Positions 2,705 to 57,222 of a DNA stretch of 64,000 nucleotides are shown here, piece after piece. Under the pieces are notes generated by a model. It worked only from the letters and a program-made list of their open reading frames with translations, was not told where the DNA came from and ran no database searches. This stretch comes from Isurus oxyrinchus. Its lineage: Eukaryota. How positions within the stretch are numbered: position 1 is the first letter of the stretch; each line of letters opens with the position of its first letter. The position numbers were made by a program, and so were the translations under genes. The stretch is taken from NCBI GenBank assembly GCA_026770705.1, contig JANJGN010000008.1, positions 162,316,001 through 162,380,000 on the forward strand. Direction: 5' to 3'.

Positions 2705-3160
2705 AAGTTAAGAGTCAACCGCATTGCTGTGTTTGTGGAGTCACATGTAGGCTAGGCCAGGCCAGGTGAGGATGGCAGATTTCCTTCCCTAAAGGACATT
2801 AGTGACATTAGACATTTACAACAATCAATGATCGTCAACAAAAACAGAATTACCTGGAAAAACTCAGCAGCTCTGGCAGCATCGGCAGAGAAGAAAAGAG
2901 TTGACGTTTCGAGTCCTCATGACCCTTCGACAGAACTGATCAATGATCGTCCATTGTTACTCAGACCATCTTTCAAAAGTGGATTTTATTAATTAATTTT
3001 ATTACTTAATTTATTAGTTGAATTATTGAATTTACTTAATTAATTAACTTTAATTACTAACTAAATTAACTGAATTTAAATTTCATCAACAGCCATGGTG
3101 GGATTTGAACCCATATCACCTAGGCCTCTGGATTACTAGTGATGTTACCATTATTCCATC
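2705..3160 (-). mobile_element. HE1-like tRNA-derived SINE, interrupted by a PLE mini-element
   Basis: Reverse complement of the 4350-4661 SINE: B-box rc GGGATTTGAACCC near 3100 and core GGCAGATTTCCTTCCCTAAAGGACATTAGTGA near 2775. Confidence 0.75.
2837..2938 (-). mobile_element. PLE mini-element (hammerhead-containing terminal repeat only)
   Basis: Near-identical to rc of 32474-32575; 13-bp TSD ATCAATGATCGTC at 2824-2836 and 2939-2951. Confidence 0.9.
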
Positions 3161-5908: not shown

Positions 5909-6515
5909 AAACTGGAGGAACAGTACCTCATCTTCCGACTAGGCACTTTACAGCATTCCAGACTTTTAGATCATGACCTCTCTCCTCCATCCTTATCCCC
6001 TTTCCGATCCCCCCTTTTTTTTTCCAATAATTTATATAGATTTTTCTTTTCCCACCGATTTCCATTATTTTTAAATGTATTTTCATACATTGTTTTATCT
6101 CTACCTTTTAGCTTATTCCGATCCCTTCCCTTCACCCCGCCCCACCCCCACTAGGGCTATCTGTACCTTGCTTGTCCGGCTTTCTACTCTTAATTAGCAC
6201 ATTCCTTAGATAATGTCCCCACCTTCAACATCTCTTTGTCCTTTTGTCTATGACATCTTTTGGTTATCTCCACCTATCACTGGCCCTCTATCCAGCTCTA
6301 CCTGTCCCACCACCCACCGCACCCCCCCCCCCCCAACCTTAATCCAGCTTATATTTCACCTCTTTTCTATTTTTCCTTAGTTCTGTTGAAGAGTCATTCG
6401 GACTCGAAATGTTAACTGTGTTCCTCTCCGCAGTTGCTGCCAGACCTGTTGAGTTTTTCCAGGTATTTTTATTTTTGTTTTGGATTGCCAGTATCCGCAG
6501 TTTTTTGCTTTTATA
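5909..6515 (+). mobile_element. 5'-truncated PLE, older subfamily: GIY-YIG C-terminus, 3' region, hammerhead and tail
   Basis: Starts with KLEEQYLIFRLGTLQ coding sequence, colinear with 31993-32582; hammerhead at 6379-6417 with stem II GAGUC/GACUC. Confidence 0.85.
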
Positions 6516-8221: not shown

Positions 8222-8782
8222 ATTACTGAGGTAAGGAAGGTTTGTCAGTGAACCGTACCAAACTTGTGCTTCTAGTAGCAAATATTACTGAACGTGTAAT
8301 TGTCTTTTATAGCAACCCACTCACTTTACCTGGTTTGGTTATCATGCAAGTTGTTATTTTAAAACTGCAAGGGTGTGTGCAGCCAAGAACATTTTGAAGG
8401 GAATAGGAAAAAGCAATGTTCTTGAAAAAATAACTTTTGTTTATTGCACATGTTCAAATCGCTATCACCACTGCTTATCAATCACCATTATATAGATTTT
8501 TCTTTCCCACCTATTTCCATTATCTTTAAATATTTTTAAATCTTTTATGCTCTCCCCACCCTCCACTAGAGCTATACCTTGGGTGCCCTACCATCCATTC
8601 TTAATTAGCACATTCGTTTAGATAATATCACCAACTTTAACACCTGTGTTCTTTTGTTCTATTGTTGTTGACATCTTTTGATGATCTGCTTCTATCACTG
8701 CTTGTTTGTCCCTACAACCACACCCCCCTCCACTTCTCTCTCTCTCTCCGCCCCCCCCCACCCCCACACACCTTAAACCAGC

Positions 8783-8822
8783 TTATATTTCAACTCTTTC
8801 TTGGACTCGAACTCAAGTTCTG
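8783..8822 (+). promoter_or_regulatory. Putative PLE core promoter (TATA-like TTATATTT plus Inr-like site at the hammerhead 5' end)
   Basis: TTATATTT lies 26-33 nt upstream of AGTTCTG; other copies read TTAGTTC (6377) and CTAGTTC (28055), matching Inr YYANWYY; mini-elements begin here. Confidence 0.4.
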
Positions 8823-8854
8823 TCGAAGGGTCATGAGGACTCGAAACGTCAACT
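8816..8854 (+). ncRNA. Minimal type I hammerhead ribozyme, variant core (representative copy)
   Basis: AGUU-CUGUCGA-A-GGGUC-AUGAG-GACUC-GAAAC-GUC/AACU: stem I AGUU/AACU, stem II GGGUC/GACUC, loopless palindromic stem III ACGU, predicted cleavage after C8850. Further copies at 6379, 10962, 28057, 28173, 32474, 51561 (+) and ~2899, ~26014, ~27686, ~30629 (-). Confidence 0.75.
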
Positions 8855-10664
8855 CTTTTCTTCTCCGCCGATGCTGCCAGACCTGCTGAGTTTTTCCAGG
8901 TAATTCTGTTATTGTTTACCATTTTTTGTAGCTATTTCAAATGCAAATGTTACTTTTATACATTAGTAGTATTTTACAAAGCAATTAAAGGGCAATTTTT
9001 GGGATTGTGTCAGGTTTTGGAAATCAGTTGCCCTTTATTTTGTACCAGAGGTCTGCTAATCAAATGACCTGTCAATGGTCCTTGTCTCTTAATTTTGCAC
9101 ATGAAAAGGAACCAGTTGCATCACAATGATACCAAAAGAGGCATGGATCCTCCCTTCCCTCCTCATGGGGGGGAGCCAACACCACCAGCAGGGCGATTAC
9201 CACCAGAAATCATGAACTCCCAACAACTGTCTAGGTTGATAAAATAAGCCCCTGCCAATCACTGCAACAATTCAGCGTTGTTTGCGACAGAGCCAGCACA
9301 AGAGCAAACTCACCTCCATGGCAAGTGCTGAAACTCCCAAAGTTACCAGGGGCTGAAATTCCAAATACAAAACGTATTGTTTGTAATTTTAACACTGGGA
9401 AGTATTTATTTTCAAGAGCTGTAGGAAGAACTTCTGGCAATTGATTCTGTCATTTATTGACAGCTGCGTTGGTTAAGTGGACGTATCAGTAAAGAAACAC
9501 TGGCGCACTTGCTCTAAGCACTCTCAGGAAACTATCTCTTGGGAATAATCGGAAGACACAAAACTTTTGTTTATCCTGTATTAATTCATGACAGTACGTG
9601 AAATGTAGACATTCTGAAAGAGTGGAAAACCCCAACAATAAATCACCTACATGCCAATTCAAGTCTCTTTGGTGGCACATTCTGTGTATGCATTCCATTT
9701 ATTGGCTAATTAAGTTGATGGCAAATGGCACTGGAGTGTTTGAGGACTGCTGCTGTGATTACTAACTGACTTCCACTTGACAGAAGGCTAATAAAAATGA
9801 AAGGCTTTAAATTCTCCAGGTAATTAGCACAGCACTCTTAAAAACCTACAATGATTGTTAATGAATAAAGAAAAAAAGGCCCATTATACAAATAACTTTC
9901 CAAAGACTGCTTTTATTTATGCTTTACCAAAAACACTAACAATAGAGAGACAGCAAAATAAATCTAGAAGTGTTTCATAATTTAAAATTAAATTTAACAT
10001 CTCACAGTGTAAGAGTAACTTGAAGTAACAGACTTCATCGTACAACCAGTCACTTATTATCAAATAGGCAACTGTGGCATTTGGTGTTCCATTGCAAAAC
10101 AATTTATATTAAATGGCTGTTTTTAAAGCGAGAACTAATTGTGAGAAAGGTCATGGGAGATTATAGACATTTAGTCAGCACAATGGGCCATTCCCTTTGA
10201 TAGTTCTCGAAAGCTGCTACTGAAGTTAATTCCACGCTTGGAATCCAGGTCCCAGTGGACATAACCCCACAATGAGAGACCACCCTCACTTCAGCACAAC
10301 TGCACAAAATGAAATCCTGCAACCTGTGTCAATCTAATACCCCATTCATACCATAGCAGTCACATTGGAGAGCACGTCATTGCATGTGGAGGAGTACGCC
10401 TGCTGATGAAATCACTCACACTTTCTAGTGATTTAATAAGTGGTGGCTGAATGAAGCGATTGTTTTATTGACTTGGCTGGCATTTGCTCCCATTGAAAAT
10501 TGGTAATGAAATGCTGAATAATAGATGAGAGAGAACCGGATACCACATTTTCACAGGAGAGTATAATCTTAGGCTAAATTAAGATGCATTTACAGTGGGA
10601 GTCCCATTGGATCTTGCCTTTCCCCCATCCCTCCCTCCTTACCCCATCTCCCCCATAACAACCC

Positions 10665-12807
10665 CCTGGATCAATCCTGGTTCAATGAAGAGTGCGGGGG
10701 GTGGGGGGGTGGGGGGGGGGGACATGCCAGGAGCAGCACCAGACAAACCTAAAAATGAGGCGTCAACCTGGTGAAGCTACAACACTGGGCTACTTGCATG
10801 TCAAACAGCGAAAGTAGCAAGTTATGGACAGAGCTAAGCGATCCCACAACTAACAGATCAGGTCCAAGCTCTGCAGTCCTGCCACATCCAGTCGTGAATG
10901 GTGGTGACAAATTAATCAACTCACTGGAGGAGGAGGCATCACAAATATCCCCATCCTCAACGTTCTGTTGAAGGGTCATGAGGACTCGAAACGTCAACTC
11001 TTTTCTTCTCCGCCGATGCTGCCAGACCTGCTGAGTTTTTCCTGGTAATTCTGTTTTTGTTCCCCATCCTCAATGATGGAGGAGCCCAGCACATCAGTGC
11101 AAAAGATAAGGCTGAAGCATTTGCTACAATCTTCAGCCAGAAGTGCCGAATGGATGATCCATCTTGGCCTCCTCCGGAGGTCCCCAGCATCACAGATGCC
11201 AGTCTTTAACCAATTCGATTCACTCCACGTCAAGAAATTGCAGAAGGCGCTGGATACTGCAAAGGCTATGGGCCCTGACGATATTCCAGCAATAGTACTG
11301 AAGACTTGTGCTCCAGAACTTACTGCACCCCTAGCCAAGCTGTGTCAGTACAGCTACAACACTGGCATCTACCCAGTTATGTGGAAAATTGTCCAGGTAT
11401 GTCCTGCACACAAAAAGCAGGACAAATCCAACCTGACCAATTACTGTCCCATTTGTTTACTCTCGATCATCAGTAAACTACTGGAAGGGGTCATCAACAG
11501 TGTTATCAAGTGGCACTTGCTTAGCAATAACTTGCTCACTGATGCCCAGTTTGGGTTCCACCAGGGTCACTCAGCTCCTGACCTCACTACAGCCTTGATT
11601 CAAACATGGACAAAAGAACTGAACTCTCAAGGTGAGGTGAGAGTGACTGCCCTTGACATCAAGGCCGCATTTGACCGAGTGTGGCATCAAGGAGCCCTAG
11701 CAAAACTAGAGTCACTGGGAATCAAAGGAAGACTTTCCGCTGGTTGAAGTCATACCTAGAACAAAGGAAGATGGTTGTGGTTGTTGGAGATCAGTCATCT
11801 CAGCTCCAGGACATGACTGCAGGAGTTCCTCAGGGTAGTGTCCGAGGTCCAACCATCTTCAGCTGCTTCATCAATGACCTTCCTTCCGTCATAAGGTCAG
11901 AAGTGGGGATGTTCGCTGATGATTGCACAATGTTCAGCACCATTTGCGACTCCTCAGATACTGAAGCATGTCAAAATGCAGCAGGATCCGGACAATATCC
12001 AGGCTTGGGCTGACAAGTGGTAAATAACATTCATGCCACACAAGTGCCAGGCAATGACCATCTCCAACAAGAGAAAATCTAACCATCACCCCTTGACGTT
12101 CAATAACATTACCATCACTGAATCCACCACTGTCAATATCCTGGGGCGTTACCATTGACCAGAAACTGAACTGAACGAGCCATATAAATACTGTGGCTAC
12201 AACAGCAGGTCAGAGGCTAGGAATCCTACGATGAGTAACTCATGTTCTGGCTCCCCAAAATCTGTCCATGATCTACAAGGCACAAGTCAGGAGTGTGATG
12301 GAATGCTCCCCACCTGCCTGGATGAGTGCAGCTCCCACAGCACTCAAGAAGCTTGACACTGTCCAGGCCACACAGCCCACTTGATTGGCACCACATCCAC
12401 AAACATTCACTCCCTCCACCACCGACGCAACTTAGCAGCAGTGTGTACCATCTACAAGATGCACTGCAGGAATTCACCAAGGCTCCTTAGACAGCACCTT
12501 CCAAACCCACGACCTCTACCATCTAAAAGGACAATGGCAGCAGATAGATGGGAACACCACCACTTGGAAGTTCCCCTCCAAGTCACTCACTATCCTGACT
12601 TGGAAATATGTCACCGTTCCTTCACTGTCGCTGGGTCAAAATCCTGGAACTCCCTCCCTAACAGCACTGAGGGTCTACCTACGCCACAGGGACTGCAGTG
12701 GTTCAAGAAGGCAGCTCACCAGCAACTTCTCAAGGGCAACTAGGGATGGGCAATAAATGCTGGCCTGGCCAGCGAAGCCCACATCCCTTGAATGAATAAA
12801 AAAAAAA
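10665..12807 (+). mobile_element. HER1-like non-LTR retrotransposon (CR1/L2 group), 5'-truncated, frameshifted RT
   Basis: ORFs 11073-11747 (KAMGPDDIP, QFGF, LDIKAAFDRVWH) and 11681-12013 (GVPQGSV, FADD); ends GAATGAATAAAAAAAAA. Confidence 0.92.
10961..11060 (+). mobile_element. PLE mini-element nested in the LINE
   Basis: 13-bp TSD TCCCCATCCTCAA at 10948-10960 and 11061-11073; starts at hammerhead stem I. Confidence 0.9.
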
Positions 12808-24619: not shown

Positions 24620-24733
24620 ATAACAAAAAGCAGAAAACAGTATAAAAACAGAAAATGCTGGAAAAACTCAGCAGGTCTGGCAGCATCTGTGGAGAGAGAA
24701 ACAGGGTTAATGCTTGACTCTTCTTCAGAGCTG
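24620..24733 (-). mobile_element. Old PLE terminal-repeat fragment with canonical hammerhead core start
   Basis: rc reads CAGCT-CTGAAGA-A-GAGTC... with the 3' half of the ribozyme deleted, followed by the PLE repeat body. Confidence 0.7.
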
Positions 24734-25180: not shown

Positions 25181-25955
25181 TAGAACAAGAGGATATTTTT
25201 CAAAGTTTAATACCTTCTCACATAGTACTGTGAGAAGATCCCAACAGATCAGAGTACCAAACTAAAGGATTCTGCTTTCCAAAACCCCCCCCAGCCAAAT
25301 TCTTGCCAATATTTACAAACTTGTTTTAGGCCTCAGTAAAAGGAATTCAACCTTAAATGTTCAAGAGATACCTAGTCGTAAACAAAAGCTTTGTTTCTGA
25401 GCTCTAAATTCTAGTTGCCGGAGACATGATAAAGACATGCTCATGGTCTGCTTCAATCAACACCATCAAGTGAAGTCAAACAGCAAAGCATCACTGAAAC
25501 AGATGAACATGCACCAGCCCTCAATAACATAAAGATGATGACATCGCAAGTCAAGGGTTGAAAACTGCTTTTTGTAATGGATTCTATTTCTTGGCAACTA
25601 AATGTCATTTATCTAATGCTGCTGCTTTTACTATTGCGAACATTCTAAATCTAAGTTTACTCATGCATTGTTTTCGTTGTTACTGTATACTGTAGGTAGA
25701 GCATCATCAAGGCAGTCAAATATTCACAATTAGAGAATCCGAAAGGATGTCTTTAAAGCTATTGATGTGCTTGACATCTGCAGAAAGTTAAGGCACCTCC
25801 CCATCACTAAATATGTGGCCAAGATATTTTACTGACTTGTTTTCTTATGCAATCTACACTAATGTTTCAATGAACCCTGCTCTCCCGCATCCTGCACCCA
25901 GAGCTGTTCCTTCCAGTTTTTGGCTAGCCTACTGAAAAGTACAAGAAGCCACTAC

Positions 25956-26175
25956 AAAAAGAGAATTACCTGGAAAAACTCAGCAGGTCTGGCAGCATCA
26001 GCGGAGAAGAAAAGAGTTGATGTTTCGAGTCCTCTTGACCCTTCCACAGAACAGGTCATGAGGACTCGAAACGTCAACTCTTTTCTTCTCCGCCGATGCT
26101 GCCAGACCTGCTGAGTTTTTCCAGGTAATTTTGTTTTTGTTTTGGTTTTCCAGCATCCGCAGTTTTTTGTTTTTA
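25956..26175. mobile_element. Young PLE inverted-pair insertion
   Basis: rc arm 25956-26052 and forward arm 26054-26175; 15-bp TSD ACAAGAAGCCACTAC at 25941-25955 and 26176-26190. Confidence 0.92.
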
Positions 26176-27584: not shown

Positions 27585-28157
27585 GAGATAAAAACAAAAA
27601 AACTGCGGATGCTGGAAATCCAAAACAAAAACAGAATTACCTGGAAAAACTCAGCAGGTCTGGCAGCATCGGCAGAGAAGAAAAGAGTTGACATTTCAAG
27701 TCCTCATGACCCTTCGACAGAACTACAGAACTAGGTGAATCCAAGGAAGGGGTGAAATATAAGCTGGTTTAAGGTGTGTGTGTGTGGGGGAGAGAAGTGG
27801 AGGTGGGGGTGTGGTTGTAGGGACAATAAGCTGGTTTAAGGTGTGTGTATGGGGGGGGTGGGTTGGATGGGGAGAGAGAAGTGGAGGGGGAGGTGTGGTT
27901 GTAGGGACAAGCAAGCAGTGATATCACTGCTTGCTTGTTCCTACAACCACACACCCCCCCACTTCTCTCCCCCCACCCAACTCCCCCCCCCCCCCCCCCC
28001 ACCACACACACACACCTTAAACCAGCTTATATTTCACCCCTTCCTTGGATTCACCTAGTTCTGTCGAAGGGTCATGAGGACTCGAAACGTCAACTCTTTT
28101 CTTCTCCGCCGATGCTGCCAGACCTGCTGAGTTTTTCCAGGTAATTCTGTTTTTGTA
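27585..28157. mobile_element. Spacerless palindromic PLE insertion
   Basis: Centre AAGCAAGCAGTGAT|ATCACTGCTTGCTT at 27922/27923; TSD GCAGAAAATACA at 27573-27584 and 28158-28169. Confidence 0.9.
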
Positions 28158-28170
28158 GCAGAAAATACAT

Positions 28171-28271
28171 TCAGTTCTGTTGAAGGATCATGAGGACTCG
28201 AAACATCAACTCTTTTCTTCTCCGCCGATGCTGCCAGACCTGTTGAGTTTTTCCAGGTAATTCTGTTTTTG
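28171..28271 (+). mobile_element. PLE mini-element in tandem behind the palindrome
   Basis: Flanked by TTGTAGCAGAAAATACAT at 28153-28170 and 28272-28289. Confidence 0.85.
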
Positions 28272-28689
28272 TTGTAGCAGAAAATACATCTTTGGTGCAG
28301 GACCCACTAACTCATGAATGTCATGCAGAAGGAGTGACATTGGCTTCCTTCACTGCTATCCAAATGTACCTGAAACCACCTTGATTTTTTTTTAAGGGAT
28401 TAAATGCTTCATCTTTCACATATCATTGGGTTGCTTTGAAATAATCCTTTCAATATAGAGGTGGGGCATTGCAGAACCCATTGTTGCTGTTCACAGTAAG
28501 CTGCATAGTCAAACAGAAATGAAAGAAGGGAGGAGAGAAAGCTCAGGATTGAGATGAACAGAGACAAACCAGGAACAAAGTAGGAGCAATAAACAAAGAG
28601 AAGAACACCACAAACAAAGGAAAGAGTATCAGGATTGAAAATATGGACTGCAACAATAAAAAGATGAGAGAGCAAGCATGTTGGACTGG

Positions 28690-29865: not shown

Positions 29866-30433
29866 TTACTCCCCAAAGCCTGTCCACCATCTACAAGGCA
29901 CAAGTCAGGAGTGTGATGGAATACTCTCCACTTGCCTGGAATGAGTGCAGCTCCCACAACTCTCAAGGAGCTCAACGCCATCCAGGACAAAGCAGCCCAC
30001 TTGATTGGCACCCCATCCACAAACATTCACTCCCTCCACCACCGACACACAGTAGCAGCAGTGTGTACCATCTACAAGATGCACTGCAGGAACTCACAAA
30101 GCCTCCTTAGGCAGCACCTTCCAAACCCACGACCGCTACCATCTAGAAGGACAAGGGTAACAGACACACAGAAAAGCCACCACATGGAATATCCCCTCTA
30201 AACCACACACCATCCTGACTTGGAACTATATCGCCGTTCCTTCACTGTCATTGGGCCAAAATCCTGGAACTCCCTTCCTAACAGCACTGTGGGTGTACCT
30301 ACACCACATGGACTGCAACAGTTCAGGAAGGCAGCTCATCACCACCTTCTCAAGGGCAATTAGGGATGGGCAATAAATGTTGGCCTAACTAACGAGCCAA
30401 AGATGCTGACACCCCATGAGTGAACGAAAAAAA
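29866..30433 (+). mobile_element. HER1-like LINE 3' fragment
   Basis: Colinear with 12250-12807 (IHSLHHRHTVAAVCTIYKMHC); same 3' tail. Confidence 0.9.
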
Positions 30434-31075
30434 GATAAAGGGGTGGAATTCGCATTGCCAAATTCTGGCCCATGCCCCCTCCACCTTTAACTGTCAGTCA
30501 GTCATTTTACCCAACTCCAATATATATAAAAACAAAAAAACTGCGGATGCTGGAAATCCAAAACAAAAACAAAAACAGAATTACCTGGAAAAACTCAGCA
30601 GGTCTGGCAACATCGGCGGAGAAGAAAAGAGTTGACGTTTCGAGTCCTCATGACCCTTCGACAGAACTTGAGTTCGAGTCCAAGAAAGAGTTGAAATATA
30701 AGCTGGTTTAAGGTGTGTGTGTGGGGGGCGGAGAGATAGAGAGAGAGAGAGGTGGGGGCGGGGGTGTGGTTGTAGGGACAAACAAGCAGTGATAGAAGCA
30801 GATCATCAAAAGATGTCAGCAACAATGGTACAAAAGAACACATAGGTGTTAAAGTTAAAGTTGGTGATATTATCTAAATGAATGTGCTAATTAAGAATGG
30901 ATGGTAGGGCACTCAAGGTATAGCTCTAGTGGGGGTGTTTTTTTTTAAAAATAATGGAAATAGATGGGAAAAGGAAAATCTTTATAATTTAATGGAGGAA
31001 CAACACCTCATCTTCCGACTAGGCACTTTACAGCCTTCCGGACTGAATATTGAATTCAACAACTTTAGGTCGTGA

Positions 31076-31577
31076 ATCGGCATTCCGTAGGAATCGCTCC
31101 CTCCGGGACACCCTGGTCCACTCCTCCATCACCCCCTACTCCTCAACCCCCTCCTATGGCACCACCCCATGCCCACGCAAAAGATGTAACACCTGCCCCT
31201 TCACTTCCTCTCTCCTCACCGTCCAAGGGCCCAAACACTCCTTTCAAGTGAAGCAGCATTTCACTTGCATTTCCCCCAACTTAGTCTACTGCATTCGTTG
31301 CTCCCAATGTGGTCTCCTCTACATTGGAGAGATCAAACGTAAACTGGGCGACCGCTTTGCAGAACACCTGCGGTCTGTCCGCAAGAATGACCCAAACCTC
31401 CCTGTCGCTTGCTATTTTAACACTCCACCCTGCTCTCTTGCCCACATGTTTGTCCTTGGCTTGCTGCATTGTTCCAGTGAAGCCCAACGCAAACTGGAGG
31501 AACAACACCTCATCTTCCGACTAGGCACTTTACAGCCTTCCGGACTGAATATTGAATTCAACAACTTTAGGTCGTGA
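31076..31577 (+). CDS. PLE GIY-YIG endonuclease domain, copy 1 (no RT, no ATG)
   Basis: AFRR..SLRDTLV, Cys linker CPRKRCNTC (Neptune-type), VYCIRCSQC..YIGE, RFAEH, EQHLI..L.GLN. Confidence 0.85.
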
Positions 31578-32079
31578 ATCGGCATTCCGTAGGGATCGCT
31601 CCCTCCGGGACACCCTGGTCCACTCCTCCATCACCCCCTACTCCTCAACCCCCTCCTATGGCACCACCCCATGCCCACGCAAAAGATGTAACACCTGCCC
31701 CTTCACTTCCTCTCTCCTCACCGTCCAAGGGCCCAAATACTCCTTTCAAGTGAAGCAGCATTTCACTTGCATTTCCCCCAACTTAGTCTACTGCATTCGT
31801 TGCTCCCAATGTGGTCTCCTCTATATTGGAGAGACCAAACGTAAACTGGGCGACCGCTTTGCAGAACACCTGCGGTCTGTCCGCAAGAATGACCCAAACC
31901 TCCCTGTCGCTTGCTATTTTAACACTCCACCCTGCTCTCTTGCCCACATGTCTGACCTTGGCTTGCTGCATTGTTCCAGTGAAGCCCAACGCAAACTGGA
32001 GGAACAACACCTCATCTTCCGACTAGGCACTTTACAGCCTTCCGGACTGAATATTGAATTCAATAACTTTAGGTCGTGA
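31578..32079 (+). CDS. PLE GIY-YIG endonuclease domain, copy 2
   Basis: About 7 substitutions from copy 1 over 502 nt; YIGETKR motif intact; followed by the native 3' region. Confidence 0.85.
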
Positions 32080-34369
32080 GCTCCCTCCCCCATCCCCACC
32101 CCCTTTCTGTTTCCCCCTTCCTTTTTTTTCCAATAAATTATAAAGATTTTCCTTTTCCCACCTATTTCCATTATTTAAAAAAAAAATTAAAAAAAAACAC
32201 CCCCACTAGAGCTGTACCTTGAGTGCCCTACCATCCATTCTTAATTAGCACATTCGTTTAGATAATATCACCAACTTTAACTTTAACACCTATGTGTTCT
32301 TTTGTACCATTGATGCTGACATCTTTTGATGATCTGCTTCTATCACTGCTTGTTTGTCCCTACAACCACACCCCCCACCTCTCACTCTCTCTCGCTCTGT
32401 CTCTCCGCCCCCCCCCCCCACACACACACCTTAAACCAGCTTATATTTCAACTCTTTCTTGGACTCGAAATCAAGTTCTGTCGAAGGGTCATGAGGACTC
32501 GAAACGTCAACTCTTTTCTTCTCCGCCGATGCTGCCAGACCTGCTGAGTTTTTCCAGGTAGTTCTGTTTTTGTTTTTGTTATCCAACTCCAATATTCTTA
32601 TAATTAATTAAAAAAGGATATTCAAAGGAAGTGACAAAAAAAAAAAATCATTTTTCTTTTATTGCCCCTATGACTTCTTCCCCCCTCCCCATGGGCTGCT
32701 CGGAGAGTAACTCAGGGATTAAGTTTTAATTCCTGGAGGCTCCAGGACAACCTGGAGGGTTGGCAGCTCTAGGCACATCTAAAGGTGAAGGATGGGGAGG
32801 CAGCCATTGTCCAGATTTGGTTAACTTTAGCAAAGCACAGCTGCAGCTTCTTCCGACACGCGTCGCTGCCACAGACTCACAATGGCAACACAGTTATGGT
32901 CGCAATTAGCAGGTTCAAAGAAAATTGAGTAAATTATTTGCAGTCAGCTTTGGCCGAGCGCCGACATCCCAAATTGGCTGACCTCAAAGTGAGGGACGCA
33001 TGAGCCGTTCTGACCGATCACTGGCTCAGCCGCTGTCTATGCCCCACTTATATCTGAAGTCAGTGATGTACTCCCAGCGCTATTAGATCTTGTTGAACAG
33101 CTGAAGCTCAGTTAAAAAGCATCTCCCTTAATGTGCAAAGTAGTTCTGTCATAACTGGAACATTCTGTCAAGTTCAAACACACGCATGGATTAAATCTTA
33201 CCAGCAAGTATGTAACACTAAACAACAGGATTGACGCTAGGACAGGTTTGTAGTCCTAATCCCTCGTTATATCCTTATCTGCATCATTCCACCTTTTGCA
33301 CCCACTACACTGTGATGAAGTGAAGTAGAACAAAATAAACCAGCAGGACACATCAGGACAGGTTATAAAAGTGGCTGGGGTTAGACTGTGAAAAAGTGAA
33401 GTTGCACAGAACAGAGCAGAGGTCTGTTTGTTTGAAAGGCACACTGCTTCAGGTGGAGTGGATTTCAGACCCCTGATACATTCCTGGAATGCAGTGAATT
33501 TTCATGCTGCACAAGGTTTATGAAACATCCACGTAAATGGGAACGAGAACCCCTGCCTGCAACTGATTCTGACAAAAGGCTGTATATGCTTTGCTTCCAC
33601 AATGAAATATGGTTGAAGCTTTATTGGATCACCCTAATGTATGTGAAACCTTTTTCCATTTGATTACCCTCATTCAGCCAAAATACAACTGCGCTGCTCC
33701 GCAGGAAGGTAACTTGAAATGAAAGAACTTACAGTAACTCTACCCATTGGTTTGCTTATGATTCTGTCAGTTACGGGAGCTATGTGGATTCATTTAAAGC
33801 CTTAAGCACCTTCACTTTCCTGGTGAAGTCAAACATAATTTGCCTCCAAGAAGGTTAATCGTGCAGCATTTTTGGATTGGAAGTGAAGCCATTCAAGCGC
33901 CAATCACTGGAATCTCAGCAGGGTTGCACTTGGAACACTCATCGCCATATTCAGGGGTCCCTCAATTCGAGGATGACATCAGCTCAGGGTCTTTGGAGGG
34001 GGGGAGGCGGGGGGGGGGGCGGGTGTGGTCGATGACTTACCTCGGGGGATGGATCTGCCACAAGTATCAATCTGACCCTCTGTTCCCATCCAACCTCATG
34101 GCCAAAGCGCAACTTCACTCCTGATTTCTTTGCGTGTTGAAGCAGCCAAGTATAACCAGCAGTGCCATATATTCTGGATCACCAGTGGGCACGGATTCTG
34201 CCACTAGTGCCTGCATACAGGAACCCATTCAGTAGGCCCATTCAGCCCTTCGAACTTACTCTCTATTCAATTAGACCATGGCTGATGAGATTAAAAGGCT
34301 TGAACTGAGTTTCAAGACATTGAATCCACCCTTTTTTTAAATCGCACTTCTTCTTTCCAGAAGATCATC

Positions 34370-50944: not shown

Positions 50945-51990
50945 CAGTACAGCACAGAAGGAAGCCATTCAGCTCATCAAATCCATGCCAGCTCTATGTG
51001 GAGCAACACAATTAGTCCCATTGCCCACTCTATTCCCATACCCCCACACGTTTACTTTGCTTAATACCCATCCAATTTCCTTTTGAAATCATTCACCCTC
51101 ATAGGCATCAAGTTCCAGGTCATTACCACTCACTTTGTAAAAGATTTGGTTCTCATGCCCCCTCTGCATGTTTTGCCCAAAAATCCTGAATCTGTGTCCC
51201 CTAATCCCTGTACTATCAGTTAAAAGGAAGAGATTTTCCCTGTCTACCTTATTTAAACCTGTCATAATTTTGTATACCTCTATCAAATTGCCTTTTCTCC
51301 AAGGGGGACAACCCCAGCTTCTCCAGCCTAACCATGTAGCTAACATCTCTCATCTTTAGAACCATTCTGGAAAATCTCCTCTGCACTCTCTCAAGGACCC
51401 TCACATCCTTCCTAAGTTTGGTCACCAGAACTGTATGCAATATACTGGTTGTAGCCCAACCAGCGCCTTATAAAAGGTTCATCATACCCTCCCTGCTTTT
51501 ATATTCAATACCAGTATTTATGAAGCCCAAGATTCCATATGCTTTGTGAACCACTCTCTTAGTTCTGTGGAAAGGTCATGAAGACTTGAAATGTCAACTC
51601 TTTTCTTCTCCGCCGATGCTGCCAGATCTGTTGAGTTTTTCCAGGTAATTCTGTTTTTGTTTTGGATTTCCAGCATCCGCAGTTTTTTGTTTTTAACTCT
51701 CTCAATATGTCCTGTCACCTTCAAAGATTTACGCGTATGACTCCAGATCCCTCGACCCATGCACACTTTTTGGACTGCACCATTAAATCTATATTACTTC
51801 TCCCTATCCCTTCTGCCAAAGCCTCACATTTCTCTTTCATAAATTCCATCTACCAGTTGTCTGCCCATTCTACTGGCCTATTTACATTCTGTTGCAGTCA
51901 ATTGGATCATCTTCACTGTTTGCCACACGCCCAAGTTTCTCGTCATTGGTAGATATGGAAATGTTACGAGGTATTCCAATATCCAAATCA
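50945..51990 (-). mobile_element. CR1 fragment carrying a PLE insertion
   Basis: ORFs LERVQRRFSRM and GNLIEVYKIMTGL. Confidence 0.8.
51560..51695 (+). mobile_element. PLE mini-element with tail
   Basis: Starts TAGTTCTG; TSD ACTCTCT at 51553-51559 and 51696-51702. Confidence 0.85.
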
Positions 51991-56241: not shown

Positions 56242-57222
56242 TTTTTTTTATTCATTCACGTGACGTAGGCTTCGCAGGCTGGGCCAGCATTTATTGCTCT
56301 TCCCTAGTTGCCCTTGAGAAGGTGGTGGTGAGCTGCCTTCTTGAACCGCTGAAGTCCATGTGGCGTAGGTACACCCACAGTGCTGTTAAGGAGGGAGTTC
56401 CAGGATTTTGATCCAGTGACAGTGAAGGAATGGTGATATATTTCCAAGTTAGGATGGTGAGTGATTTGGAGGGGAACTTCTACGTGGTGGCGTTCCCATC
56501 TATCTGCTGCCCCTGTCCTTCTAGATGGTAATGGTCATGGGTTTGAAAGGTTCTGTCGAAGGAGCCTTGGTGAATTCCTGCAGTGCATCTTATAGATGGT
56601 ACACACTGCTGCTACTGTGCATCGGTGGTGGAGGGAGTGAATGTTTGTGGATGTGATGCCAATCAAATGGACTGCTTTGTCCTGGACAGTGTCCAGCTTC
56701 TTGAATGTTGTGGGAGCTGCACTCATCCAGGCAAGTGGAGAGTATTCCACCACACCCCTGACTTGTGCCTTGTAGATGGTGGGCAGGCTTTGGGGAATCA
56801 GGAGGTGAGTTACTCATTGCTGGATGCCTAGCCTCTGACCTGCTCTTGTAATCACAGTATTTGTATGGCTGGTCCAGTTCAGTTTCTGGTCAATGGTAAC
56901 CCCCTGGATGTTGATAGTTGGGGATTCAGTGATGGTAATGCCATTGAACATCAAGGGGTGATGGTTAGATTCTCTTTAGATGGAGATGTTCATTGACTGG
57001 CACTTGTGTGGTGCAGATGTTACTTATCACTTGTCAGCCCAAGCCTGGATATTGTCCAGGTCTTGCTGTATTTGGGCATGGACTGCTTCAGTATCTGAAG
57101 AGTCACGAATGGTGCTGAACATTGTGCAATCATCAGCAAACATCCCCACTTCTGACTTTATGATAGAAGGAAGGTCATTGATGAAGCAGCTGAAGATGGT
57201 TGGGCCGAGGACACTACCCTGG
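56242..57222 (-). mobile_element. HER1-like LINE 3' fragment
   Basis: ORF 57027-57278 QGSVLGPTIFSCFINDL..FADD; rc of 11830-12807. Confidence 0.92.

Follow-up and report, generated by a model that had tools for sequence, protein, structure and literature searches.

A minimal hammerhead motif with a pyrimidine at core position 6 in an abundant PLE of the shark Isurus oxyrinchus

INTRODUCTION

The hammerhead motif at positions 8816–8854 of the window (the whole 64,000-nt stretch of Isurus oxyrinchus DNA that was analysed) has U at core position 6, where the published consensus has A. The locus raises the question of whether a very large family of retroelements carries a working ribozyme, a slowed one, or the remains of one. 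Minimal hammerheads (min-HHR) have been described in the pseudo-LTRs of metazoan PLEs with the consensus CUGANGAH (Cervera and de la Pena, 2014; PMC4209133), and the parts of the literature covered here call the role of hammerheads in PLEs unclear.

RESULTS

A Minimal Hammerhead with U at Position 6

The motif was read from the sequence and with a descriptor, and has the following parts.

8816..8854, forward strand: minimal type I hammerhead
8816–8819 (AGTT) and 8851–8854 (AACT), forward strand: stem I
8820–8826, forward strand: core CTGTCGA, with U6 at 8823 and an extra A at 8827
8828–8832 and 8838–8842, forward strand: stem II, GGGTC/GACTC, with a 5-nt loop between the arms
8843–8846, 8847–8848 and 8849–8850, forward strand: GAAA, palindromic CG and U16.1-C17
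after 8850, forward strand: cut site, predicted from the motif architecture

This is the anatomy given in the preliminary description (T6 core, extra A, stem II, GAAA-CG-TC, AGTT/AACT). Stems I and II, an extra base after A9, G10.1-C11.1, a loopless palindromic stem III and an NUH site are all present; descriptor and pseudo-LTR context agree that this is the minimal hammerhead of a PLE. The canonical CUGANGA core with A6 is absent. An exact 33-mer with U6 occurs 71,369 times in the 4.98-Gb genome, whereas its A6 counterpart occurs 102 times (A6 being confined to older subfamilies) and versions with C or G at position 6 occur 1,568 times; the reversed control gave 0 in each case. At one locus (L014) an apparent A6 revertant owes its A to the target site through microhomology, and the 102 A6 matches thus include some junction artefacts. 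With position 6 left free, a relaxed descriptor gave 40 matches (35 T, 3 A, 1 C, 1 G) in an 864-kb sample (80 stretches taken at round coordinates, plus the window) and none once the sample was reversed. The motif is therefore not a chance occurrence. Exact pattern matches to older U6 forms number 5,928 genome-wide, and those to A6 forms 4,291. Contigs from sequencing runs under four organism labels have T at position 6 and no A at thresholds of 1–5%, a biased comparison in that the contigs were aligned to the young sequence. An Rfam scan of the window returned no hammerhead match at E up to 5; its miRNA matches were inverted pairs of the PLE repeat.

Two earlier statements about variation within the motif held in part. 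All young copies were said to read CUGUCGA or CUGUUGA: T6 is present in all 11 young or middle copies of the window with a readable core, but N7 is G in two. Stem II was said to vary while keeping its pairing, and GAGTC/GACTC with a different loop does occur at 6391–6405, but the change is one-sided and is not covariation. GAGUC to GGGUC turns A-U into G-U on one strand, is not compensatory, and is the single such change in the U6 lineage. Stem II of a more distant A6 subfamily differs yet pairs (by eye, in a few degraded copies).

The Host Element

Other parts and copies of the element in the window are as follows.

8487..8815, forward strand: PLE 3′ UTR/pseudo-LTR upstream of the hammerhead, in a 5′-truncated copy with no ORF; 87% identical to 32137–32575, which comes after the GIY-YIG stop codon
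8855..8917, forward strand: tail following the hammerhead; the 3′ ends of inserts fall in clusters at ~99–106 and 125–134 nt from the motif start
31549..32079, forward strand: C-terminal PLE ORF remnant with Cys-rich linker and GIY-YIG, duplicated at 31047–31577; PF01541, E = 1.2e-4, which passes the Pfam cut-off
32080..32575, forward strand: pseudo-LTR after the ORF remnant; U6 hammerhead at 32474–32512
30567..30988, reverse strand: inverted pseudo-LTR partner within that insertion; contains a U6 hammerhead at 30630–30668
6140..6480, forward strand: copy of an older U6 subfamily with GAGTC stem II and H17 = U; hammerhead at 6379–6417
10962..11061, forward strand: short hammerhead-plus-tail insert beginning at the motif 5′ edge, with a 13-nt target-site duplication
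2837..2937, reverse strand: short hammerhead-plus-tail insert beginning at stem I, with a 13-nt target-site duplication
28173..28273, forward strand: short hammerhead-plus-tail insert beginning at stem I, with a target-site duplication
27623..28156, no single strand: inverted pair of U6 copies; hammerheads at 27686–27724 (reverse) and 28057–28095 (forward)
25954..26142, no single strand: head-to-head inverted pair joined at the hammerhead 5′ edge
51561..51662, forward strand: short U6 copy with N7 = G, beginning at stem I
24644..24732, reverse strand: old A6 relative (CUGAAGA) without the stem II 3′ arm and GAAAC

At locus L032 an intact 918-aa ORF matches PF00078 (E = 6.9e-8) and PF01541 (E = 8.9e-4, short of the Pfam cut-off) and has U6 motifs on both sides. 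The locus holds three tandem units ~3.35 kb apart that are 99.5% identical. Given the intact ORF with U6 motifs on both sides and the near identity of the units, this very abundant element is an EN+ PLE that has been active recently with U6 hammerheads. A single ORF with RT followed by a C-terminal GIY-YIG domain is the EN+ arrangement, and the tandems of L032, the inverted pairs of the window, the pseudo-LTRs and the tail with its two 3′-end clusters are PLE structures. Open frames of 926 aa contain 7 of the 150 scored endonuclease matches. The endonuclease is preceded by a Zn-finger-like Cys linker, CPRKRCNTC. Cys-rich linkers between RT and endonuclease are described for Neptune and Nematis PLEs in the sources covered, and the element is probably of Neptune type, an assignment made by this linker, which Neptune and Nematis have in common. 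The closest named protein is from bamboo shark (70% identity over RT residues 300–700), in keeping with an elasmobranch host. The AUG of the element lies ~170 nt downstream of the hammerhead, and the tail at 8855–8917 appears to resemble the PLE tail of Frangieh et al. (2024; PMC11167929), as far as that source was covered.

Several further arrangements were seen. The endonuclease region carries a 502-nt tandem duplication (98.8% identical) within one inverted insertion (30993–32079). Head-to-head inverted pairs are common, both in the window (25954–26142, 27623–28156, 30567–32575) and in the genome-wide listing; their junction often lies only a few bases from the hammerhead 5′ edge, in many cases at a short microhomology. 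The tail contains an inverted repeat, GATGCTG ... CAGCATC (8870–8917; L032:5612–5680), and a donor-like site, CAG/GTAATT, falls in the same tail region as both 3′-end clusters. Directly after the insert at 10962–11061 lies a different RT-encoding fragment (PF00078; 11049–11747, forward strand, and 11831–12805), with related copies at 29869–30433 and 56242–57221. The RT ORF at 11049–11747 was considered as part of the PLE and rejected; it belongs to a different retroelement that a copy interrupts or adjoins.

Position 6 Changed from A to U and Then in Part to C

A profile search placed 113 copies in the 864-kb sample into subfamilies. In a tree of the ORF 3′ end (endonuclease region), built from the 52 of 64 grouped copies with enough overlap and rooted on an old A6 copy, the A6 groups F1–F3 are basal and the U6 groups F4–F7 are nested in one ladder; one U6 copy was placed with F3 at low support. 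At non-CpG sites, F3 and F4 copies diverge from their majority by ~4–5% and F7 copies by 0.3–2%, and F4 and F7 are separated by dS 0.15 and dN 0.03 over 373 codons. Ladder and divergences together argue for a single origin of A6U, well before the present expansion, followed by several U6 masters. We take U6, on these data, to be derived and fixed in the active lineage. The preliminary description had proposed that A6U was derived and then spread, which the genome-wide counts and the nested U6 groups bear out. It had relied on the relative at 24732 (reverse strand). That copy does read CUGAAGA, but its stem II 3′ arm and GAAAC are gone; because it is broken, the direction of the change rests on the genome-wide sample instead. 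The F3 and F4 motifs differ at position 6 and loop II only, so no compensating change accompanied A6U.

Position 6 later changed again. A hand count among the matches listed (100 of the 1,568 with C or G) gave 85 CTGCTGA, 10 CTGCCGA and 5 with G, and the CTGCTGA branch has at least 1,300 exact 33-mer copies (for example at L098, L212 and L232). About one fifth of C6 copies among the matches listed (100 of 1,916) have a common upstream variant of their own, and several other upstream types occur. One or more C6 branches were thus amplified, since the number is far above the point-mutation yield from the rarer TT form and part of the copies share an upstream variant of their own. Several upstream variants of the F6 stage carry the C6 branch, which hints that masters recombined at the motif 5′ edge. 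No amplified young branch reverted to A; position 6 has moved from one pyrimidine to another, which fits either relaxed constraint or tolerance of a pyrimidine.

Stem I has a history of its own. The oldest A6 subfamily, F1 (L189, L182, L193), has a C-A mismatch there (AGCT versus AACT), and later subfamilies had this repaired to the better-paired AGTT/AACT before A6U. An A6 side branch, F3b (L184, L186, L202), independently acquired GGGTC and H17 = C, two changes that the U6 lineage also went through at a later stage.

The Rest of the Motif Changed in a Hammerhead-Compatible Pattern

Seven changes outside position 6 were found along the U6 ladder: four in loop II (one CpG decay excluded), N7 U to C, H17 U to C, and the A-U to G-U change in stem II. 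All seven are compatible with a hammerhead (p = 1e-4 to 8e-4 under a simple model in which 28–36% of possible changes are compatible, applied to majority sequences of small, partly pattern-selected groups of 4 to 51 copies), and none of the ten other invariant core bases changed. Of 31 constrained sites 1 changed, compared with 13 of the 36 positions in the flanking sequence next to the motif (Fisher p = 8.5e-4). When ORF synonymous sites (p = 0.15) or the 60-nt tail (p = 0.42) serve as the reference, the difference is not significant. The 7/7 compatible changes and the contrast with the flanks uphold the view that the rest of the motif was kept in a hammerhead-specific pattern, and selection on the fold and remaining core is likely.

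The core was also surveyed in bulk with patterns that left it free, so that they would not dictate the result. Hand counts among the matches listed showed variation in the 5′ core at position 6 only (~12 A, 2 C and 1 G; 100 of 6,946) and, in the 3′ core, at CpG sites, including G12 to A in ~29 (100 of 7,114), a frequency of the same order as neighboring CpG decay. By eye, the matches listed (100 of 6,946 and 100 of 7,114) contained no amplified change at other core sites.

These data bear on whether the motif is a neutral relic in which all function was lost at A6U and drift is not yet visible. Synonymous divergence of the master lineage since A6U is only 0.15, zero changes in ten core sites has a probability of 0.23, and five changes in 39 nt match the neutral rate. 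However, all seven changes fall on compatible sites and both flanks turned over fast while the motif held, and we regard a relic as improbable.

Inserts Begin at Stem I, Not at the Cut Site

Insert ends were mapped in 141 copies with a tail from 1.264 Mb of unselected sequence. Among the young U6 copies (n = 66), 26 extend at least 50 nt upstream of stem I, 18 start at −6 to +6 of its first base, 8 start at +7 to +30, and none starts around the cut site (+31 to +39, with the cut at +35). Old A6 copies start at −6 to +6 in 18 of 63 cases, although they are degraded and some of these boundaries are artefactual. The pile-up at stem I has p = 3e-7 for young U6 and p = 1e-4 for old A6 copies. Target-site duplications of 8–18 nt adjoin several stem I starts, which indicates that the pieces of 100–130 nt are whole insertions. 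Inserts of the youngest type often begin 3–6 nt further upstream.

Young copies broken between GAAA and the tail number only 1,454 genome-wide, with no peak at the cut site. Among the matches listed (100 of 1,454), ~12 start exactly there, and the positions three, two and one base further upstream have ~15, 8 and 4 starts, by a hand count that set aside ~13 indel rows and in which several starts are explained by microhomology. In the middle subfamilies no excess at the cut site was seen by eye in any of the 92 matches, whether with A6-type or U6-type tails (nine C21 rows among them are one segmental repeat). Because neither type shows an excess, this footprint does not separate A6 from U6. Insertions spanning the cut site had been held to fit attenuation, but spanning is equally the rule in A6 subfamilies and is thus no evidence of it. 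Because insert 5′ ends lie at the first base of the hammerhead and not at the cut site, the copied RNA templates were probably uncleaved, both before and after A6U.

A possible reason for the pile-up lies just upstream.

8784..8790, forward strand: TATA-like box, 32 nt upstream of stem I; putative core promoter

The box is kept in the majority sequences of F3–F7. It lies 29–30 nt upstream of stem I in 42 of 44 older U6 copies; 20 of 22 A6 copies have it at 28–31 nt, and 23 of the 24 youngest copies at 32 nt. TATA boxes and initiators each have a consensus, and the spacing between the two is 30 nt. Transcription may therefore start at the first base of the hammerhead. Turnover of the 20–23 nt between box and stem I (8796–8815) far outpaced that of the remaining element, and the youngest subfamily gained a partial duplicate of the stem II 3′ arm (GGACTCGAA) there.

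The same features could be read as a splice acceptor, with 8784–8790 as its branch point and the stem I pile-up as its product. In Drosophila virilis Penelope an intron does end at this spot, the 5′ end of helix I, where the shark element has a pyrimidine tract and AG (Schostak et al., 2008; PMC2377424, as far as covered). The D. virilis promoter is, however, TATA-less and internal, with a start upstream of the intron, whereas shark inserts begin at stem I, retain the AG and have duplicated target DNA upstream with no common exon. We rank splicing lower than a transcription start. A stop of the RT at stem I is possible. Both elements have hammerhead and promoter in the pseudo-LTR, the shark promoter being putative.

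Expected Activity of the U6 Core

Published core mutants, cited from the parts of each study that were covered, suggest a large loss of activity. The kobs of a natural A6C hammerhead is 0.004 per min with 1 mM Mg but 0.3 per min with Mn; in a mouse-gut hammerhead the A6C change lowered the rate ~1e5-fold at 0.3 mM Mg (PMC7151607). A saturation mutagenesis study of a further hammerhead found that single changes in the CUGA turn left little activity, which, apart from a C3-G8 swap, could not be restored by any second mutation (PMC9901934). Given this mutagenesis, full activity of the U6 motif is unlikely. Even dimers of minimal PLE hammerheads are reported to be weak cutters. In Anolis the PLE hammerhead needs its protein for cleavage, and this cleavage is dispensable for insertion in vitro, since catalytic mutants still insert (Frangieh et al., 2024; PMC11167929). 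Naiad PLEs have spread without canonical hammerheads.

Folding predictions with 40 nt of upstream flank gave, for the young subfamilies, hammerhead stems with P ~0–0.01 that lie 5.5–10 kcal/mol above the ensemble. Swapping position 6 in silico had no consistent effect on stem formation in 12 natural copies. An upstream hairpin burying G5-U6-C7 was considered as a reason for U6 and rejected; it forms in one young variant only.

One could suppose that U6 is fully tolerated here, for example through rescue by the element's protein or Mn, and works like its A6 ancestor. The lineage flourished after A6U, A6C hammerheads cut well in Mn (PMC7151607), and the pattern of insert ends did not change with A6U. 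All the mutagenesis cited nevertheless records large losses in Mg, and the F3 and F4 motifs, differing only at position 6 and loop II, reveal nothing that compensates. We find such unimpaired function very doubtful.

A stronger candidate is that the ribozyme is dead and its 39 nt are kept as the RNA 5′ end, either as a fold bound by the PLE protein or as downstream core-promoter sequence. The templates were apparently uncleaved, position 6 toggles between U and C, tail conservation is about equal to that of the motif, and, in the sources covered, CUGA mutants are poorly active (PMC9901934), Anolis catalytic mutants insert in vitro (PMC11167929) and Naiad elements do without canonical hammerheads. 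Yet the changes fell where catalysis tolerates them (N7, loop II, H17 to C, the stem II wobble), the ten other invariant core bases did not change, and a promoter element has no evident reason for a hammerhead-compatible pattern. Loss of catalysis is a real possibility, though one we lean away from.

DISCUSSION

The reading we prefer, tentatively and with a probability of roughly 45%, is a strongly attenuated ribozyme, possibly dependent on protein or on dimer formation, at the putative 5′ end of the element RNA. Core A6 would have changed to U once and then stayed a pyrimidine, leaving the ribozyme much slower. The TATA-like box would set the transcription start at stem I, making the hammerhead the first 39 nt of the RNA, and the second hammerhead, 3.3 kb downstream in the 3′ pseudo-LTR, could be its dimer partner via the ACGU palindrome. 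The inserts of 100–130 nt would arise when reverse transcription, beginning in the tail, runs through to the uncut 5′ end. Fast cutting would strip the cap upstream of the AUG, so that a slower ribozyme may have been of little cost to the element or even of benefit; the other core bases would be preserved by rare cutting that supplies unit-length or circular templates. A 2026 paper reports, in the part covered, that 5′-UTR hammerhead cleavage can drive cap-independent translation in fungal viruses, which may be a further use of rare cutting.

Attenuation is favored by the predominance of U6 (71,369 versus 102 for A6), the intact ORF flanked by U6 motifs, the nested U6 tree, the seven of seven compatible changes, the residual activity of A6C, the protein-dependent cutting in Anolis and the insert starts at stem I. 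Against it stand the low activity of CUGA mutants, the comparisons with p = 0.15 and 0.42, the rarely predicted hammerhead stems, the lack of a cutting footprint in genomic copies of either U6 or A6 and the indirect placement of the start site. The C6 branch also counts against attenuation, as it reads as relaxed constraint. A bolder version, which we consider unlikely, treats position 6 as a pyrimidine slot in a working hammerhead, with A6 replaced by protein or Mn; the motif would then be a tuned self-decapping or circularizing switch at the first base of a capped RNA, whose slowing let the lineage reach ~100,000 copies.

Minimal PLE hammerheads and a natural A6C core were already known, and the U6 lineage adds to these. 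The following comparisons hold for the parts of each source that were covered. With the min-HHR (PMC4209133) the motif shares its place in both pseudo-LTRs, the short stem I, the extra base after A9, G10.1-C11.1, the loopless palindromic stem III, C-G at 15.2/16.2, the NUH site and the many subfamilies per genome. The sole core change described there is, in contrast, U3-A8, and the surveyed rows of its Figure S3 alignment are all A6, with no cartilaginous fish among them. The hammerhead of phage Bcep176 likewise has a natural pyrimidine at position 6, with low activity in Mg (PMC3088659, PMC7151607), and the C6 side branch has the same core change. That hammerhead is a single intergenic phage motif, whereas here a minimal motif lacking stem III, mainly with U, is present in >70,000 retrotransposon copies. 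Like Poseidon_Ac of Anolis (PAc; PMC11167929), the shark element has a hammerhead near the ORF start, a tail with two 3′-end positions and no ends at the cut site (judged from RNA for PAc and from genomic inserts here). PAc differs in belonging to the Penelope/Poseidon clade and having its start codon inside the motif; in the shark element the AUG is downstream, the Cys-rich linker is that of Neptune/Nematis and the core is altered. The parts covered of Cervera 2014, Perreault 2011, Weinberg 2019, Craig 2021, de la Pena 2017, Liu 2024, Schostak 2008, Frangieh 2024 and a 2026 retrozyme preprint contain no report of A6U, and literature searches returned none. It may have been catalogued earlier, most plausibly in Lünse 2017. 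Beyond the preliminary description, it is new that a C6 branch was amplified and that insert ends pile up at the motif 5′ edge.

The A6, U6 and C6 versions of one motif, arising in a known order and accompanied by intact full-length copies, constitute a natural experiment. Insert ends offer a route to PLE transcript starts from genomes alone. If the U6 motif still cuts, the invariant core is looser than descriptors assume, and very large families escape searches for CUGANGA. Should it fail to cut, the element has retained a ribozyme for a non-catalytic job at the 5′ end of its RNA.
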